Assembly (NCBI RefSeq): GCF_001598855.1
Contig: NZ_BCZS01000012.1
Location: 93,551-157,550, forward strand
Direction: 5' to 3'
Source of the DNA: Pluralibacter gergoviae ATCC 33028 = NBRC 105706
Lineage (GTDB): Bacteria; Pseudomonadota; Gammaproteobacteria; Enterobacterales; Enterobacteriaceae
DNA: 64,000 nucleotides
Part shown: one piece after another, positions 38,567 through 63,965 of the stretch
Layout: each line of letters begins with the position of its first letter
Numbering within the stretch: position 1 is the first letter of the stretch
Position numbers and translations under genes: made by a program
Notes under the pieces: model-generated
What the model was told of the DNA's origin: nothing
The model's input: the letters and a program-made list of their open reading frames with translations, nothing else
Databases searched by the model: none

Positions 38567-38809
38567 AACAATACTCTTTCTGGTGTGAGATTTGTGACCT
38601 TGGTCGATTGTAGCGCCTGAGATCGGGATTGTGATGATTTTTATATCATTGCCAGGGCGATACACCGTTATTCGTAAAATGCCCCGCAAAGTATAGTTGT
38701 TATAAGCGCCATTACTTCGTCTTATCTCTGCATGAAAAATCCGCATAACCGCAACATTGACAGCACACCGTATTAACCCGTATTTATTATGTACAACCTG
38801 CACTTACGC

Positions 38810-39060
38810 AGGCCAGAAGAGGCGCGTTGCCCAGGTACGGTGTTTGAGAAGCCGGTTCGACGAAAGCACCTGAGGGGGAGCAACGCCGAGGTGATTAAAC
38901 GTCCTGGCGCGTTAATCACCGGCTACAGGGGCTGAATCCCCTGGGCTGTCACCAGAAACGTTCCCAGTCGGGCGTTTCGCAAGGTGGAGCACTTCTGGGT
39001 GAATTCGTAGTTGTTAACTGCTCTGCGCCCACCCTGTTTTTCGCTCTTCCCTTGTGCCAT
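38810..39060 (+). ncRNA. lysine riboswitch (LYS element/L-box) in the lysC 5' leader
   Basis: Leader nearly identical to the E. coli lysC leader (GGCCAGAAGAGGCGCGTTGCCCA...CTGAGGGGG...GGGGCTGAATCCCCTGGG...GTCGGGCGTTTCGCAAG...GGAGCACTTCTGGGTGA). Confidence 0.85.
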
Positions 39061-39091
39061 GGCTGAATACTTGACACGAGGTTTTACACTA

Positions 39092-40453
39092 ATGACTACT
39101 GCTCTCTCCTCATTCGTCGTGGCCAAATTTGGCGGCACCAGCGTGGCCGATTATGACGCCATGAACCGCAGCGCCGACGTGGTGCTGGCCGACAGCGCCG
39201 TGCGCCTGGTGGTGCTCTCTGCGTCTGCGGGCGTCACCAACCTGCTGGTGGCACTCTCTGAAGGCCTGGAGGCCACCGAGCGCTTTGTGAAGCTCGATGC
39301 CCTGCGCAAGATTCAGTTCGATATTCTGGAGCGGATGCAGAACCCGCTGGTGATCCGCGAAGAGGTGGAGCGCCTGCTGGATAATATTACCACCCTTGCC
39401 GAAGCGGCCTCGCTGGCGACGTCTGCGGCGCTGACCGACGAGCTGGTCAGCCACGGGGAGCTGATGTCCACCCTGCTGTTTGTCGAGATCCTGCGCGAGC
39501 GCCGCGTGGAAGCGCAGTGGTTCGATGTGCGTAAAGTAATGCGCACCAACCACCAGTTTGGCCGCGCCGAACCGGACGTTCCCGCGCTGGCGGAGCTTGC
39601 CACCCAGCAGCTGGCGCCGCGCCTGGCAGAGAGCCTGGTGATCACCCAGGGCTTTATCGGCAGCGAAGATAAAGGCCGCACCACGACGCTGGGCCGCGGC
39701 GGCAGCGACTATACCGCCGCCCTGCTGGGTGAGGCCCTGCACGCCGGGCGGGTCGATATCTGGACCGACGTGCCCGGTATCTACACCACCGATCCGCGCA
39801 TTGTGCCCGCCGCCCGCCGCATCGACGTTATCGCCTTTGAAGAAGCCGCCGAGATGGCGACCTTCGGCGCCAAGGTACTGCATCCGGCTACCCTGCTGCC
39901 CGCCGTGCGCAGCGACATTCCGGTGTTCGTCGGCTCCAGCAAAGAGCCGAAAGCGGGCGGGACGCTGGTGTGCAATAAAACCGAGCAGCCGCCGCTGTTC
40001 CGCGCCCTGGCCCTGCGCCGCAAGCAGACGCTGCTGACCCTGCACAGTCTCAACATGTTGCATTCGCGCGGCTTTCTGGCGGAGGTGTTCGGCATTCTGG
40101 CGCGCCACAGCATCTCGGTTGACCTGATCACCACCTCGGAAGTGAGCGTCGCCCTGACGCTGGACACCACCGGCTCCACCTCCACCGCCGACACGCTGCT
40201 GACCCAGGCGCTGCTCACCGAGCTGTCGTCCCTGTGCCTGGTGGAAGTTGAGCAGGACCTGGCCCTGGTGGCGCTGATTGGCAACAATCTGGTCAACGCC
40301 CGCGGCGTCGGTAAAGAGGTGTTCGGCGTGCTGGATCCGTTTAATATCCGCATGATCTGCTACGGCGCATCCAGCCACAACCTCTGCTTCCTGGTGCCCG
40401 GCGGCGACGCCGAGCAGGTGGTGCAGAAGCTGCATCATAATTTGTTTGAATAA
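39092..40453 (+). CDS. lysC: lysine-sensitive aspartokinase III; true start at 39092
   Basis: Near-identical to E. coli LysC (VVAKFGGTSVADYDAMNRSA...); the track ORF extends into the riboswitch. Confidence 0.96.
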   Translation: MTTALSSFVVAKFGGTSVADYDAMNRSADVVLADSAVRLVVLSASAGVTNLLVALSEGLEATERFVKLDALRKIQFDILERMQNPLVIREEVERLLDNITTLAEAASLATSAALTDELVSHGELMSTLLFVEILRERRVEAQWFDVRKVMRTNHQFGRAEPDVPALAELATQQLAPRLAESLVITQGFIGSEDKGRTTTLGRGGSDYTAALLGEALHAGRVDIWTDVPGIYTTDPRIVPAARRIDVIAFEEAAEMATFGAKVLHPATLLPAVRSDIPVFVGSSKEPKAGGTLVCNKTEQPPLFRALALRRKQTLLTLHSLNMLHSRGFLAEVFGILARHSISVDLITTSEVSVALTLDTTGSTSTADTLLTQALLTELSSLCLVEVEQDLALVALIGNNLVNARGVGKEVFGVLDPFNIRMICYGASSHNLCFLVPGGDAEQVVQKLHHNLFE

Positions 40454-40481: not shown

Positions 40482-41285
40482 CTACCGGGCCTTTTTATTT
40501 TGCAGAACGGTGTTCATCAATAGCCAGTCCAGCGCTCGGATGTCACCTTTGCGGCTGTCCGGTAGCGTCGACGGTGTCTCCCCCCGCACCAGTTCCTGCT
40601 GGATAAAAGCGTGCAGCTCCGGCATTCGCGCACCGTAATGCGCCTCCCCGGCGCGCTGCTTTTTCTCAAGCAGCAGAGAGATCTCCTCGCGCAGCGCTGC
40701 ATCCAGCTCACTTCCCGCCAGCAGATCGGCGAAACGCATAGGTGGAATACCTTTTCCCTCCTCGACCCAGCGCACTGCCAGCAGCGGACGCAGCACGTAG
40801 AAATACTTTTTCAGACGCACTTCGCTGCCCTGCAGATAGCCGCGAAAGTTTTTTCGCGCCATTGAGTAGTAATGCCAGCGAGCACGCAAGGGAGAGAACC
40901 ACAGCGGCACCTGCTGGCGTAACTGCCCTACGACCTCATCGTCCTGACGATAGACAATGGGCGATCGCAGCCATTCGATGAGCGTGGGGTTTGCCCCCTT
41001 CAGCAGTCCCAGCGCCTTGCGCCACTCCCAGCCGGAGACATCCAGCTCGTCGTCGATCGGCAGTTCAATAACGTCGCGCTGCGGTTCCACCCTCAGGTAC
41101 CATTCGGGGGCATGCACATAGATAAAGCGGACATCGTAGTCGCTATCCGGTGAAGCGAACCCCCAGCCCCTGCTGCCGGACTCGCAGGCGTAAAGAATGC
41201 GCACATCGTGTTGCTGTTCGATATCTCCGAGCTGCCGCAGCACGCGCTCGCGCATCGCGGTATCAACGCTGTTTAAGGTCATCAT
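40482..41285 (-). CDS. pol-beta-superfamily nucleotidyltransferase (COG3541/Nuc-transf-like), last gene of the RtcR-controlled operon
   Basis: CESGSRGWGFASPDSDYDV = G[GS]x9-13Dx[DE] NTase motif; start lies 3 nt after the rtcB stop. Confidence 0.75.
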   Translation of the reverse strand: MMTLNSVDTAMRERVLRQLGDIEQQHDVRILYACESGSRGWGFASPDSDYDVRFIYVHAPEWYLRVEPQRDVIELPIDDELDVSGWEWRKALGLLKGANPTLIEWLRSPIVYRQDDEVVGQLRQQVPLWFSPLRARWHYYSMARKNFRGYLQGSEVRLKKYFYVLRPLLAVRWVEEGKGIPPMRFADLLAGSELDAALREEISLLLEKKQRAGEAHYGARMPELHAFIQQELVRGETPSTLPDSRKGDIRALDWLLMNTVLQNKKAR

Positions 41286-41288
41286 TTA

Positions 41289-42515
41289 TTATCCTTTCAC
41301 GCACACTACCTGCCGTAGCGTATGTACAATCTCCACCAGCGATAACTGTGCCGCCATCACGGCATCGATATCTTTATAGGCCATCGGGATCTCGTCTATC
41401 ACCTCTGCGTCTTTGCGGCATTCAACGTGCGCCGTAGACCTGATCTGATCCGCAACGGTAAACTGTTTTTTTGCCGCGGTACGGCTCATTGTTCTGCCGG
41501 CGCCGTGGCTGCAGGAGCAGAAGCTCTCAGCATTTCCCAGCCCGCGCACGATAAAACTTTTCGCGCCCATTGAGCCGGGAATGATCCCCATCTGCCCTTT
41601 CTGCGCTGAAACCGCGCCTTTGCGGGTGATAAGTACCTCCTCGCCAAAGTGCGTCTCTTTTTGTACATAGTTGTGGTGGCAGTTAACCGCCTCCTGATGC
41701 GTGGTAAACGGTTTTGCCACTATAAGGGACAGCGCTGCCAGCACCCTGGACATCATGACCTCACGGTTGTGGCGGGCAAAGTCCTGAGCCCACTCAACCG
41801 CTTCAATATAATCATCATAGTGCCGGCTACCCTCGCGGAAATAGGCCAGATTGCAGTCCGGCAGGTTGGCAATATGTTGCTGCATATCTTTCTGCGCCAG
41901 CGTAATAAACAGGTTGCCGATGGCATTCCCTACGCCCCGCGATCCGCTGTGCAGCATGACCCAGACCTGCTGTTGCTCATCCAGGCAAACTTCAATGAAG
42001 TGGTTCCCGGTGCCGAGCGTCCCCAGATGTAAATAGTGATTAGTTTTCTGCAGTTGCGGGTATTTATCCGTCAGTTGCTTAAAACGCGGTGCCAGCACAG
42101 ACCAGTGTCCGTCTACGATTTCAGGCGGCGTATGCCAAGCGCCCTTATCGCGCCGGGAGCGCATATTTGTCCGCCCGTGCGGCACCACCGACTCAATGGC
42201 GCTGCGCAGGCCGCTAAGGTGGTCGGGCAGATCGCCTGCCGTTAGCGACGTGCGCACGGCAATCATGCCGCAGCCGATGTCCACGCCAACTGCGGCCGGG
42301 ATAATTGCGCCTTTAGTAGGAATAACGCTGCCAATAGTCGAGCCTTTTCCGAGATGCACATCAGGCATCACCGCCAGATGCTTAAAAATAAAGGGCATTT
42401 TTGCGGTATTAAGCAGTTGCTCCTGCGCTTTTGCATCGACCGGCACACCGCAGGTCCACATTTTTATCGGCGCGCCGCCTGGCGCACTCACTAACTGGAA
42501 TTGTTCTGTTTCCAT
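41289..42515 (-). CDS. rtcB: RNA-splicing ligase RtcB (3'-phosphate/5'-OH ligase)
   Basis: 408 aa, near-identical to E. coli RtcB, including the NHF metal-site region and the C-terminal CRKDAEVIDEIPMAYKDIDAVM. Confidence 0.95.
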   Translation of the reverse strand: METEQFQLVSAPGGAPIKMWTCGVPVDAKAQEQLLNTAKMPFIFKHLAVMPDVHLGKGSTIGSVIPTKGAIIPAAVGVDIGCGMIAVRTSLTAGDLPDHLSGLRSAIESVVPHGRTNMRSRRDKGAWHTPPEIVDGHWSVLAPRFKQLTDKYPQLQKTNHYLHLGTLGTGNHFIEVCLDEQQQVWVMLHSGSRGVGNAIGNLFITLAQKDMQQHIANLPDCNLAYFREGSRHYDDYIEAVEWAQDFARHNREVMMSRVLAALSLIVAKPFTTHQEAVNCHHNYVQKETHFGEEVLITRKGAVSAQKGQMGIIPGSMGAKSFIVRGLGNAESFCSCSHGAGRTMSRTAAKKQFTVADQIRSTAHVECRKDAEVIDEIPMAYKDIDAVMAAQLSLVEIVHTLRQVVCVKG

Positions 42516-42519
42516 TGCC

Positions 42520-43647
42520 CTATCCTTTAATGTTCACGAGGCCGTTCAATACCTGATCCAGGCCACCGAAAACGGAAATTTTGTCGATACGCTCTGCGAC
42601 TCTCTCAAGCGTCTCCAGTTCTTTAAGACGCAACGCCACGGGGTTGTTCTCCATCACCTTTGCGGTATTCAGCAAAGAGCGCGTCGCGGCCGTCTCTTCT
42701 CTTCGGCGAATAACATTTGCCTGCGCTGCCTTTTCAGCTTCGACCACTCTGGAGAGGATCGCTTTCATATCACCGGGCAGAACGATGTCCTTTACGCCAA
42801 GAGAAGCGATTTCGATACCGAATGCGGCCATTCGCGCCTTCACCTGAGCGCTGACGACCTCATCGATGAGCTGCTTGTCTTCCAGAAGTTCATCGAGCGT
42901 GCGGGTGCCTACTGCTTCCCGCAGCGCGAACTGCAGCTCGCGGTAGAGATATTCCAGCGGTTTTGCCAGTTGCTCGAAAACCTGCATAACGGCGCTATAG
43001 CGCCAGTTTGCCGCCAGGTTCAGGCGCAGGTTTACCTTATCTTTTGTCAGAATCTCCTGACCGCTAACCTCCAGCGCCTGCAGACGGGTGTCTACCACCT
43101 CCGCCTCGACCAGATGATTAACCTGCCACCAGCCCGTCACGCCTGGCGGCAGCAGAGGCTGCGTCTTACCGTCAATTTTCAGCACACCCACGTGCCAGGC
43201 CGGTACCGACACGGCCAGTATGGCGTCCCGGCCTTTTACCGGCTCATTAGCCCGCGGCTGCAGCACCGCACTCATTACTTCGGCGGGTACCCGGGCCTCT
43301 CGGCTATCCATCCGCACCAGCGTGAGTGCATCACCGGCCTGCCAGTACAGTCGACGGGTTAACGGCGGGATAATCTCCTGCAATACGCCGTGCAGATAGA
43401 GGGCGCCGGCTTCGTTTTCCGTCATGTCAGCCTGCAGACAGTAGCGCTCTACCCACTCCGGCTGGAAGCGGCGCAGATAGTCAGCCAGTGAACGTTCAAC
43501 GGCATTGCCATCGGCATTCACGGTCAGGACCTGCGGCGCATTAAACCACGGCAGGCGGTGCTCGCCGGCTTCCAGCACCTTAACGTAGTCTCCGTTTCTG
43601 GAAAGAAGGCCAAGCTGGCCTTTTTTTAGGGTCACTTTTTTCATCAT
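42520..43647 (-). CDS. SPFH/band-7 domain protein without an N-terminal transmembrane segment; first gene of the operon, 4 nt upstream of rtcB
   Basis: C-terminal SPFH signature (TKDKVNLRLNLAANWRY...LGVKDIVLPGDMKAILSRVVEAEKAAQANVIRRRE); N-terminal ~180 aa not recognised; no hydrophobic anchor. Confidence 0.7.
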   Translation of the reverse strand: MMKKVTLKKGQLGLLSRNGDYVKVLEAGEHRLPWFNAPQVLTVNADGNAVERSLADYLRRFQPEWVERYCLQADMTENEAGALYLHGVLQEIIPPLTRRLYWQAGDALTLVRMDSREARVPAEVMSAVLQPRANEPVKGRDAILAVSVPAWHVGVLKIDGKTQPLLPPGVTGWWQVNHLVEAEVVDTRLQALEVSGQEILTKDKVNLRLNLAANWRYSAVMQVFEQLAKPLEYLYRELQFALREAVGTRTLDELLEDKQLIDEVVSAQVKARMAAFGIEIASLGVKDIVLPGDMKAILSRVVEAEKAAQANVIRRREETAATRSLLNTAKVMENNPVALRLKELETLERVAERIDKISVFGGLDQVLNGLVNIKG

Positions 43648-43940
43648 TTCTCTGATCCTTTTTCTGGACAGGCGCGGGTGCCGTACGGAGCGGCAGGGGA
43701 AGACCTTTTCGCCTGTCGCCCGGTATCTTTACCGGCTGCCTGCTTTGGGGACGCCCAACTGCGCGCTGCCCCGGTATTGCTCTGTAAACCATTTATCACT
43801 GAGAAGAGTGAGTCGGGAATCGAACCCTGTTCAGGTGTCAGCGGCTGACGGAACACGTCGGAAATACAGCCAGTGCTGTTTCGGAAGTGCCGGCGGGGTA
43901 CAAACCCCTGCGCTTTCAGCGTATTGACCCATACGTTAAA

Positions 43941-43955
43941 GCCAGATACGTGCCA
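43941..43955 (-). promoter_or_regulatory. candidate sigma54 promoter TGGCAC-GTATC-TGGC (minus strand) about 290 nt upstream of the SPFH-rtcB-NTase operon
   Basis: GG-N10-GC spacing matches the -24/-12 consensus; RtcR is a sigma54 activator by established knowledge. Confidence 0.5.
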
Positions 43956-44093
43956 GAAGCGGAAGATCACGTTTTTTTTGCTTTCAATTAACTGATAAAT
44001 AAAGAATTAAAAATTTAAATGCTGGGTTGCTATTGTTTGAAAAATGCAAATTAACTATCTTTTAATATCGCTATTTATCCCACAGGATAAGAT

Positions 44094-45677
44094 ATGAAAA
44101 AGCGTCGAGTAGTGATTGGCGTACTGGGTACGGTACTGGATAAGCGTGGAAAACGAGCGAATCGCCACCGCAAGTGGCGCCCTACGGTCGGGTTATGCCT
44201 GCAGCCCGATTTCTCTATTGACCGCCTGGAGTTGATTCACCAGCCTCGTGACGCCGGACTGGCGAAGCAGCTTGCTGAAGATATAACTCAGGTATCTGCC
44301 GGTACTCATGTCAGGCCGCACGCCATTGCGCTGCAAAATCCGTGGGATTTCGAGGAGGTGTACGCCGCCTTTCTCGATTTCGCCATCCACTATCCGTTCG
44401 ATACTGAAAATGAAGAGTATCTGGTACATATCACCACCGGTACGCACGTCGCTCAGATCTGCTGGTTCCTGCTGACGGAGGCCCGCTATCTGCCAGCCAC
44501 CCTGCTGCAAACCGGTCCCGCGCCCAAAGATTCAACACAGGAAGCAACAGTCGCCGGCGTCTGCTCGATGATCGACCTGGACTTAAGCCGCTATGCCACC
44601 CTCACAAGCCGCTTTCAGCGCGAGCAGCAGCAGTCGGTCTCTTTTCTTAAAGCGGGAATTGAGACACGAAATCCCACTTTTAACAGGCTTATTGATCAGA
44701 TTGAGCGAGTCGCACTCCGTTCCTCCGCTCCCATACTGTTGACGGGCCCGACTGGTTCGGGAAAATCCTTTCTCGCTCAGCGTATTTTTATGCTGCGCCA
44801 AAGCCGCCATCTTGTTGCGGGAAAATTCGTGGCGGTTAACTGCGCGACGCTACGCGGGGATAATGCCATGTCGACGCTATTTGGCCATGTAAAGGGGGCG
44901 TTCACCGGAGCGCTGTCGGCCAGAAGCGGTTTGCTTAAAGAGGCCAACGGCGGCGTACTTTTTCTTGACGAAATAGCGGAACTGGGACTCGACGAGCAGG
45001 CGATGCTCCTCAAGGCCATCGAGGAGAAAACCTTCTTACCCTTCGGTTCTGATAACGAGGTAAAAAGCGATTTTCAACTGATTGCCGGGACACATCGCGA
45101 TCTGCGCCAGTGGGTCAAAGAGGGGCGCTTTCGTGAGGATCTTTACGCGCGAATTAATCTCTGGAGTTTCGCACTGCCGGGACTGGCCCAAAGACGGGAA
45201 GATATTGCGCCCAACGTCGAATATGAGCTTCAGCGATTTTGCCATGAGCAACAAAATCAGGTGCGCTTTGATAAAGAGGCAAGGGAACGCTTTCTGGCTT
45301 TTTCCAGTTCCTCGCAGGCCAGCTGGCGCGGTAATTTCCGCGAACTTGGCTCCTCAATAACCAGAATGGCAACGTTAGCTGAGCAGGGGCGAATTACCGT
45401 AGCGCTCGTTGAGGAAGAGATTATGCGCCTACGTGAAAGCTGGTATGAAGAGTCGCGGGAACCGCTAATGGAACAGGAGATCGACCTCTTCGATCGCCAG
45501 CAGCTTGAAACGGTACTTGAGGTCTGCCGCCGTAGCGAATCGCTGTCGCAGGCTGGAAGAGAACTGTTTGCCGTTTCAAGATTGAAAAAAGCCAATCCGA
45601 ATGATGCCGATCGCCTGCGTAAGTATCTGGCACGCTTTGGTTTCAGCTGGGAAACTATTCGCGATAGGCATTTTTAG
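44094..45677 (+). CDS. rtcR: sigma54-dependent transcriptional regulator RtcR (CARF + AAA+ + HTH)
   Basis: 527 aa, collinear with E. coli RtcR (GPTGSGKSF Walker A; GAFTGA; C-terminal DADRLRKYLARFG). Confidence 0.93.
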   Translation: MKKRRVVIGVLGTVLDKRGKRANRHRKWRPTVGLCLQPDFSIDRLELIHQPRDAGLAKQLAEDITQVSAGTHVRPHAIALQNPWDFEEVYAAFLDFAIHYPFDTENEEYLVHITTGTHVAQICWFLLTEARYLPATLLQTGPAPKDSTQEATVAGVCSMIDLDLSRYATLTSRFQREQQQSVSFLKAGIETRNPTFNRLIDQIERVALRSSAPILLTGPTGSGKSFLAQRIFMLRQSRHLVAGKFVAVNCATLRGDNAMSTLFGHVKGAFTGALSARSGLLKEANGGVLFLDEIAELGLDEQAMLLKAIEEKTFLPFGSDNEVKSDFQLIAGTHRDLRQWVKEGRFREDLYARINLWSFALPGLAQRREDIAPNVEYELQRFCHEQQNQVRFDKEARERFLAFSSSSQASWRGNFRELGSSITRMATLAEQGRITVALVEEEIMRLRESWYEESREPLMEQEIDLFDRQQLETVLEVCRRSESLSQAGRELFAVSRLKKANPNDADRLRKYLARFGFSWETIRDRHF

Positions 45678-63845: not shown

Positions 63846-63965
63846 ATGCCTGGCAGTTCCCTACTCTCACATGGGGAGACCCCACACTACCATCGGCGCT
63901 ACGGCGTTTCACTTCTGAGTTCGGCATGGGGTCAGGTGGGACCACCGCGCTAGTGCCGCCAGGCA
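63846..63965 (-). rRNA. rrf: 5S ribosomal RNA (terminal gene of an rrn operon whose 23S lies beyond the window end)
   Basis: 120 nt, essentially identical to E. coli 5S rRNA (TGCCTGGCGGC...GGAACTGCCAGGCAT) on the minus strand. Confidence 0.95.

Follow-up and report, generated by a model that had tools for sequence, protein, structure and literature searches.

The untranslated leader of an RNA repair operon in Pluralibacter gergoviae ATCC 33028 is a conserved structured RNA made of three modules: a 5′ domain of ~100 nt, a tRNA-derived middle and a 3′ domain of ~115 nt. It lies in a 64,000-nt stretch of contig NZ_BCZS01000012.1 (positions 93,551 to 157,550; hereafter the window, to which all window coordinates refer), between a sigma54-type promoter and the gene for a slipin, a protein of the SPFH/Band-7 family. 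RNA of this kind has been predicted before, but the form found in the window is new. A preliminary description of the window had noticed a tRNA T-arm-like motif in this leader and proposed that it belongs to an orphan Y-RNA-like element or tRNA mimic.

The promoter was read from the sequence as TGGCAC-GTATC-TGGC on the minus strand (43955-43941), with TGGCAC as its -24 and TGGC as its -12 element. A scan of the 64-kb window for the pattern TGGCAC-N5-TKGCW returned this site as the single match. With a -24 GG and a -12 GC at the correct spacing and a divergent rtcR gene adjoining, it has the features of an RtcR/sigma54-dependent promoter, dependence on RtcR itself being predicted. Transcription is estimated to start at ~43930, which gives a leader of ~283 nt, close to the ~290 nt first proposed, up to the slipin start codon (43647-43645, minus strand). 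The Shine-Dalgarno site AAGGA (43660-43656, minus strand) and the start codon both lie outside the conserved helices described below. On the transcript strand of the leader, we found no terminator-like site and no sigma70 promoter-like site.

To determine how widely the leader is conserved, we collected related loci with the slipin protein as query. A scan of one genome per species yielded 34 loci and a metagenome scan 80 further loci, one of which encodes a slipin identical to that of the window. From promoter to ATG, the leader is conserved in E. coli, Citrobacter, Klebsiella, Enterobacter, Kosakonia and others; among complete E. coli genomes it is present over this full length in 169 of 5,426, and also in a Citrobacter record. 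In each of the 30 T-arm-bearing enterobacterial genome loci, the motif GGTTCGA, which covers part of the T-arm, precedes the slipin ATG by 172-201 nt, and all but three of these loci have the strict promoter pattern 294-346 nt before the ATG. Counted over the 34 genome loci, the strict sigma54 pattern is at the corresponding place in 31. In total, 76 distinct leader sequences contain both the promoter and GGTTCGA, while their flanks vary. Since loose patterns are expected by chance 0.2-0.3 times in a single window, counts from one window do not settle the matter; it is the conservation across leaders that places the motif beyond chance. The sigma54 element and the T-loop TTCGATT between GGG and CCC, both claimed in the preliminary description, are thus present and conserved, and comparison of related leaders, the check proposed there, found the motif unchanged in all T-arm-bearing enterobacterial orthologues.

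Folding the leader as a single sequence gave a minimum free energy of -98.6 kcal/mol and was uninformative, as its z-score was -0.36. Comparative analysis did reveal structure. RNAalifold predicted 52 pairs for 33 leaders, 25 of which showed compensatory changes. The 5′ domain (43932-43833, minus strand; covariance model R1, 94 bits for the window) forms a three-way junction. Its long-range helix P1, composed of GTC/GAC (43928-26/43839-37) and GCTGA/TCAGC (43920-16/43848-44), closes the P2 hairpin (GGGG/CCCC, 43908-05/43898-95) and a long arm formed by P3 (43892-87/43856-49) and P4 (43882-75/43870-61). In alignment A6 of this domain, 96.7% of cells were paired and 19 of the 26 pairs showed compensatory changes. 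Sliding the partners by 1-3 columns reduced this to 40-55% and 4-6 pairs, respectively, and none of 500 shuffles reached the observed values. Model R1 had a single match per locus, just after the promoter, in 80 loci.

These helices revise the local pairings that had been drawn in this region. The letters of the proposed GTCAG-CCG-CTGAC hairpin are there, but TCAGC forms a long-range helix with GCTGA, close to the 5′ end. Similarly, TGTTC and GAACA can both be read in the window, but most orthologues have no GAACA partner, and GTGTTCCG is the 3′ strand of P3 rather than of a TGTTC/GAACA pairing. Both local hairpins are accordingly replaced by P1 and P3, in which compensatory changes occur.

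The 3′ domain (43778-43665, minus strand; 95.8 bits) is described by model R2, which was built from a hand-made helix assignment. It contains the P8 hairpin (43772-43747) and the long helix P9 (43742-31/43679-69), which encloses P10 (43719-43690). In alignment A9, 90% of cells were paired and 22 of 27 pairs were compensatory, as opposed to 32-53% paired cells in slid controls. The alignments behind R1 and R2 were model-fitted, which favours the structure; still, the controls, both slid and shuffled, and the separate RNAalifold prediction speak for a real covariation signal. Frequent G-U pairs in both domains fit a minus-strand transcript only. The claim that the leader is a structured RNA therefore held for both flanking domains, whose covariation is far above that of the controls. 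Neither domain was found in Rfam, where searches with the region and with the whole window returned nothing relevant to the leader, and both may be new. In Franconibacter, Siccibacter and some metagenomic relatives, the P10 loop holds an inserted hairpin of ~16-20 nt (loci L026, L028, L029, L093, L095-L098), marking a tolerated expansion point. A pseudoknot joining the P8 loop to CTGCAC was considered by eye and dropped, as it is not conserved in the leaders termed type A below.

Between these two domains lies the tRNA-derived module. Its T-arm, GGGTTCGATTCCC (43827-43815, minus strand), has a GGG stem, the T-loop TTCGATT and a CCC stem, and occurs nowhere else in the window. No T-arm-bearing leader departs from GGTTCGA. 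Enterobacterial leaders carry this module in two forms, A and B, the window being of type B. A fourth T-stem pair varies among CG, UG, UA and AU in 25 of the 38 distinct type-B sequences. Directly 3′ of the T-arm is a hairpin, TCACT-CTTCTC-AGTGA (43811-43796, minus strand), in the place of the "acceptor-like" stem-loop of the bacterial Y RNA YrlA. It is maintained by compensatory changes, with TTCAT/ATGAA, TTCAC/GTGAA and CTCACC/GGTGA in relatives and TCACT/AGTGA in the window. It is followed by a UGGUU segment, TAAATGGTTTA (43795-43785, minus strand), a possible D-loop remnant that matches [AC]TGGT[TCA] in 38 of 38 distinct type-B leaders and mostly reads CTGGTTG. A D-like stem of 3-5 bp flanking it is weakly supported by comparison (AAC/GTT, TAC/GTA, AACAC/GTGTT), and in the window it would form in another register. 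We also tried a stem closing the module, between bases 5′ of the T-arm and CTGGTTG, and rejected it: each lineage offers 4-6 bp, in differing registers against an invariant 3′ strand.

Type A, found in Kosakonia, Franconibacter, Siccibacter and others, is more tRNA-shaped in that it reads TGCGAA-AAGUCGGUU...-UCGGG-UUCGAAU-CCCGA-(A)UUCGCA-ACC. Here, a 5-bp T-stem stacks on an acceptor-like stem of 5-7 bp, followed by an encoded ACC or ACCA. Both stems covary, the T-stem as TCGGG/CCCGA, ACGGG/CCCGT, TCAGG/CCTGA and GCGGG/CCCGC, and the acceptor-like stem as GCGAA/TTCGC, GGCGAA/TTCGTC and GCAAA/TTTGC. Type B has lost the upstream acceptor strand, leaving the order T-arm, hairpin, CUGGUUG. Two leaders lie between the types. 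In L098 (approximately 2778-2850) and L101 (approximately 2752-2830), the strand 3′ of the T-arm has both an upstream and a downstream partner; the upstream pairing gives an acceptor-like stem in tRNA order, while the downstream pairing gives the hairpin in YrlA order. These leaders are possibly circular-permutation intermediates between the types, or else conformational switches.

The origin of the module became apparent in distant slipin operons, defined by 54-60% slipin protein identity. With filters off, R1 had its top match at the expected spot in these loci, and the slot between the 5′ domain and slipin is occupied by an acceptor/T-arm minihelix ending in ACC(A), or by one or two cloverleaves. 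In L032 and L034, a full cloverleaf follows a minihelix with ACCA at its end. In L114-L116, two cloverleaves abut directly, the discriminator of the first unit overlapping the first base of the second and leaving no spacer (L114 leader, ~2570-2716). The Rfam tRNA model found one full cloverleaf each in L032, L034, L114 and L116 at 50-58 bits (cut-off 29), and the anticodons that ARAGORN assigned to the distant units were odd or undetermined. The anticodon loops either have no U33 or have given way to short UUCG-type loops, with compensatory changes in the stem. As judged from their predicted folds, the L114-L116 units are tRNA bodies that cannot decode. A genuine tRNA gene was accordingly rejected as an explanation of this slot: the window has no cloverleaf, and in the full-length relatives the anticodon loop is tetraloop-like or lacks U33.

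The best R1 match lies immediately upstream of each distant tRNA-like unit (E-values of 3e-5 to 2.5e-3, weaker in L034), and in all loci bearing a tRNA-like unit or T-arm, this starts a few to ~45 nt past the conserved 5′ domain. As it occupies the matching slot, the T-arm in the window is most readily taken as a reduced descendant of the tRNA-shaped units. Type A, L098 and L101 represent graded intermediates between the cloverleaf and the window form. Sub-threshold matches to YrlA (25-33 bits, against a threshold of 69) also arise where the tandem units meet, a junction with the order T - acceptor - D, which type B resembles. The suggestion of a tRNA mimic was thus right about ancestry, while the motif on which it was built is only the middle of a larger, three-domain RNA.

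The leader is strictly linked to slipin. In the window, the slipin gene (42520-43647, minus strand; Pfam Band_7, E-value of 3e-28) is followed on the same strand by rtcB, which encodes the RNA ligase (41289-42515; Pfam RtcB, E-value of 2e-129), and rlaP, which encodes a nucleotidyltransferase (40482-41285; PF10127, Pfam RlaP, E-value of 2e-97). The divergent rtcR (44094-45677, plus strand) encodes a sigma54 activator with a CARF-type RtcR domain (Pfam RtcR and Sigma54_activat), which scored 818 bits against NCBIfam RNA_repair_RtcR (cut-off 650). According to tblastn, the constant set in the loci recovered consists of rtcR, the leader, slipin and RlaP, while RtcB is present in about half, and some genomes have the leader, slipin and RlaP and no RtcB. 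The leader precedes a slipin/Band-7 gene in all loci recovered, and the one R1 match of each locus is upstream of slipin. The E. coli K-12 rtcR-rtcBA locus, which has no slipin, had no such leader RNA (best R1 score 8.3 bits), showing that the structured leader is tied to slipin and not to RtcR operons as such. The element had been called an orphan for want of an Rsr gene; with slipin, its likely partner, encoded next door, it is no orphan.

Several individual loci deviate from this arrangement. In E. coli DSM 103246 (L001, 5960-9206), the one locus looked at among the 169 E. coli genomes, the leader, slipin and RlaP occur without an adjacent rtcR and without rtcB, next to a zeta-toxin family gene; as the sigma54 promoter is kept, the cell's other RtcR might drive the locus. 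In Enterobacter sp. EA-1 (L036, 1958-8484), rtcR, slipin, rtcB and rlaP all appear in pieces, and the leader is mismatched in its T-stem (TGG/CCC) and has lost 8 nt from the 3′ domain; either the locus is decaying or the assembly is rich in errors. Viral contigs contained one locus only, which indicates that the system is not phage-borne in that collection.

The slipin itself was characterised only in part by homology. We saw no membrane anchor or N-terminal membrane segment by eye, and the N-terminal ~150 amino acids had no Pfam or PDB match; PDB stomatin matches span residues 181-373 only. Residues 1-150, being uncharacterised, are a candidate RNA-binding part. A protein search returned 39 relatives, all close and mostly truncated. 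Beyond the operon, a lysine riboswitch (Rfam, 100 bits; 38809-39002, plus strand) lies upstream of lysC (~39011-40453, plus strand), a gene that runs towards the end of the repair operon. A 442-amino-acid open reading frame at 39110-40438 on the minus strand was considered as a further operon member and rejected, as it had no Pfam match and lies opposite a lysC-sized open reading frame. We read it as a shadow frame antisense to lysC, since in L001 and L002 its tblastn matches fall on lysC, annotated on the other strand. A 5S rRNA gene (Rfam, 90 bits; 63848-63963, minus strand) lies at the window edge, where an rRNA operon probably begins or ends.

What might the leader RNA do? With slightly better than even confidence, we infer that it is a co-transcribed cofactor or scaffold of the slipin-RlaP-RtcB repair system. 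RNA damage would activate RtcR, and the leader RNA would be made together with the operon proteins, of which it would probably be the RNA subunit. Such a subunit would have to persist as a stable species, and it may be released from the mRNA by cleavage; where an acceptor stem is retained, RNase P could do this. A mimic of the tRNA elbow could then be held on an oligomeric slipin scaffold, where it would recruit or position tRNA-recognising enzymes (RlaP, RtcB) or damaged tRNA substrates, by analogy with the Ro60-Y RNA particle. The lack of a terminator and of a second promoter in the leader counts for an RNA subunit. RlaP has been reported to add 1-2 nt to RNA 3′-OH ends in a preprint that mentions no leader RNA (PMC12776372).

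Several observations weigh against this explanation. The likeness to tRNA is minimal in the window, where the T-stem has 3 bp only and the D-like stem is weak, where ARAGORN called 0 genes and where the Rfam tRNA model had no match even at E ≤ 10. In Providencia stuartii (L031, 3668-3980), the 5′ domain persists (R1, 28 bits), as may the 3′ domain (R2, 18.9 bits), while the T-arm is absent. At least one lineage can thus dispense with the tRNA mimic, and the main function may reside in the flanking domains. Binding by slipin is itself inferred, and the AlphaFold model of the protein had a pLDDT (predicted local distance difference test) of 45 and was not used for a fold search. Finally, the RNA lies directly before the Shine-Dalgarno site, a position that also fits a cis-regulatory role.

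In such a role, which we consider rather unlikely, the leader would act as a riboswitch-like or protein-binding element that tunes translation or stability of the slipin-rtcB-rlaP mRNA and does nothing in trans. As ligand, a tRNA that is damaged or uncharged could dock on the T-loop, or an operon protein could act in feedback. T-loops do dock tRNA elbows in T-box leaders and in RNase P. The RNA is part of the 5′ untranslated region and ends ~10-25 nt before the Shine-Dalgarno site, its large conserved multi-helix domains are typical of riboswitch aptamers, and the alternative pairing of the strand 3′ of the T-arm in L098 and L101 could be a switch. That alternative, however, is confined to two lineages, and an expression platform is missing, which disfavours regulation in cis: the transcript strand has no terminator-like site, and the Shine-Dalgarno site is 3′ of all conserved helices, with no conserved sequestering pairing seen. 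Moreover, the complete tRNA-shaped units with ACC tails in relatives look like a mimic and not like a receptor.

Less likely still is a decoy or feedback function, where the tRNA-like module would compete with the tRNAs of the cell for a tRNA-targeting nuclease, or feed or dampen the activation of RtcR. It has been proposed that damaged tRNA fragments, namely tRNA halves ending in a 2′,3′-cyclic phosphate, activate RtcR via its CARF domain (PMC7790460, PMC10159003), and the same authors proposed YrlA's tRNA-like domain as a possible competitive inhibitor of an anticodon nuclease. The stable tetraloops and compensatory stems that replace anticodon loops in L114-L116 would make an uncleavable tRNA body, as suits a decoy. 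However, little tRNA body is left in the window form, which lacks an anticodon arm, a D-arm and an acceptor stem. A decoy would also leave the two large flanking domains unaccounted for, and the strict linkage is to slipin, not to RtcR or RtcB. That the T-arm is a functionless leftover of a tRNA or b7a-tRNA gene (a tRNA-derived RNA discussed below), with only the flanking leader mattering, would agree with its progressive reduction across lineages and its absence from Providencia, but is highly improbable, because neutral decay would not preserve a T-arm 13-mer that is invariant in T-arm-bearing leaders while neighbouring positions vary, nor an adjacent hairpin maintained by compensatory changes.

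We put forward a larger reading tentatively and would not yet expect it to hold. In this reading, the predicted b7a-tRNA would be only the variable centre of a hitherto undescribed three-domain RNA of ~265 nt or more, forming with a cytosolic slipin oligomer a new damage-induced ribonucleoprotein in tRNA repair, and the tRNA module would have been circularly permuted, via tandem units, to the T - stem-loop - D order of YrlA. The 5′ domain is the most widely conserved part of the RNA, from Enterobacterales to Betaproteobacteria, and is kept in Providencia without the T-arm. The 3′ domain was detectable only in Enterobacterales and a few metagenomic relatives, with no credible R2 match in the betaproteobacterial group. 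If true, the slipin-RNA particle would be comparable in logic to Ro60-Y RNA, built from unrelated parts.

RtcB/RtcR repair operons are widespread, and the leader bears on their substrates and on the roles of their accessory parts. A tRNA-like RNA partner of Band-7 proteins was predicted in 2016, and we found no test of that prediction in the literature searched, in which the 2016 work is represented by a citing summary. The present analysis adds an RNA much larger than a tRNA, backed by covariation, whose tRNA part shrinks stepwise across lineages, as well as two candidate new RNA domains for family databases. As the family is present in easily handled enterics (Klebsiella, Citrobacter, Enterobacter and E. 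coli), constructs and mutants can now be defined to ask if tRNA repair involves a slipin-RNA particle.

Compared with known systems, the window locus resembles rtcR-rtcBA of E. coli K-12 in its divergent rtcR, its sigma54 promoter with a TGGCAC -24 hexamer and its RtcB ligase. The K-12 operon differs in its -12 region (TTGCA, against TGGCT in the window) and in having ~40 nt from promoter to rtcB ATG, with no slipin, RlaP or structured leader. Acceptor/T-arm minihelices and tRNA-like domains, such as those of transfer-messenger RNA (tmRNA), mascRNA and viral RNAs, share with the window the canonical T-loop GGUUCGAUUCC. Type-A relatives further resemble the minihelices in forming a 12-bp acceptor/T stack with an ACC tail, while the window form has neither an acceptor stem nor an ACC tail. 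Its similarity to tmRNA in Rfam is limited to the 13-nt T-arm alone (5.8-9 bits).

The bacterial Y RNAs YrlA and YrlB (Rfam RF02553; Chen et al. 2014, PMC4201824) were the affiliation proposed in the preliminary description. Like them, the window RNA belongs to an RtcR-controlled repair operon and is co-transcribed with repair genes, and its modules may follow the order of YrlA (T-arm, acceptor-like stem-loop, D element): the T-arm and the next hairpin are backed by conservation and compensatory changes, and a possible D element by a conserved UGGUU with a weak stem of variable register. Membership of the YrlA family did not hold up. A 121-nt search of the window gave no RF02553 match even at E ≤ 10, and relatives reached 25-33 bits, against a gathering threshold of 69 bits. 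The operon has no Rsr/Ro60 gene, in that no TROVE protein was among the Pfam matches of the operon proteins (rsr was not sought elsewhere in the window), and the leader has no Ro-binding closing stem. Its flanks are two independently closed domains. The claim that it sits where Y RNAs sit in the RtcR regulon was correct as to the RtcR/sigma54 link; the RNA is in the 5′ leader, however, and not between genes.

The closest likeness is to b7a-tRNA, a tRNA-derived RNA predicted beside Band-7 and RtcB genes by Burroughs and Aravind (Nucleic Acids Res 2016;44:8525), as summarised in a Wolin-laboratory preprint (Wang et al., bioRxiv 10.1101/312249). According to that summary, b7a-tRNA was without experimental validation as of 2018, and functional redundancy with YrlA was proposed; we found no later mention of it in the literature searched. 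The window RNA likewise adjoins a Band-7/slipin gene in an RtcB repair operon, and L114-L116, L032 and L034 carry tRNA-like units in the slot of the window T-arm. Unlike b7a-tRNA as described in the citing summary, the window copy is not tRNA-shaped, being a T-arm, a hairpin and a UGGUU segment in permuted order, and it is set between two larger domains that are not tRNA-like. From its sequence, the middle of the leader is best read as a reduced and permuted variant of the b7a-tRNA kind, within a larger three-domain RNA.

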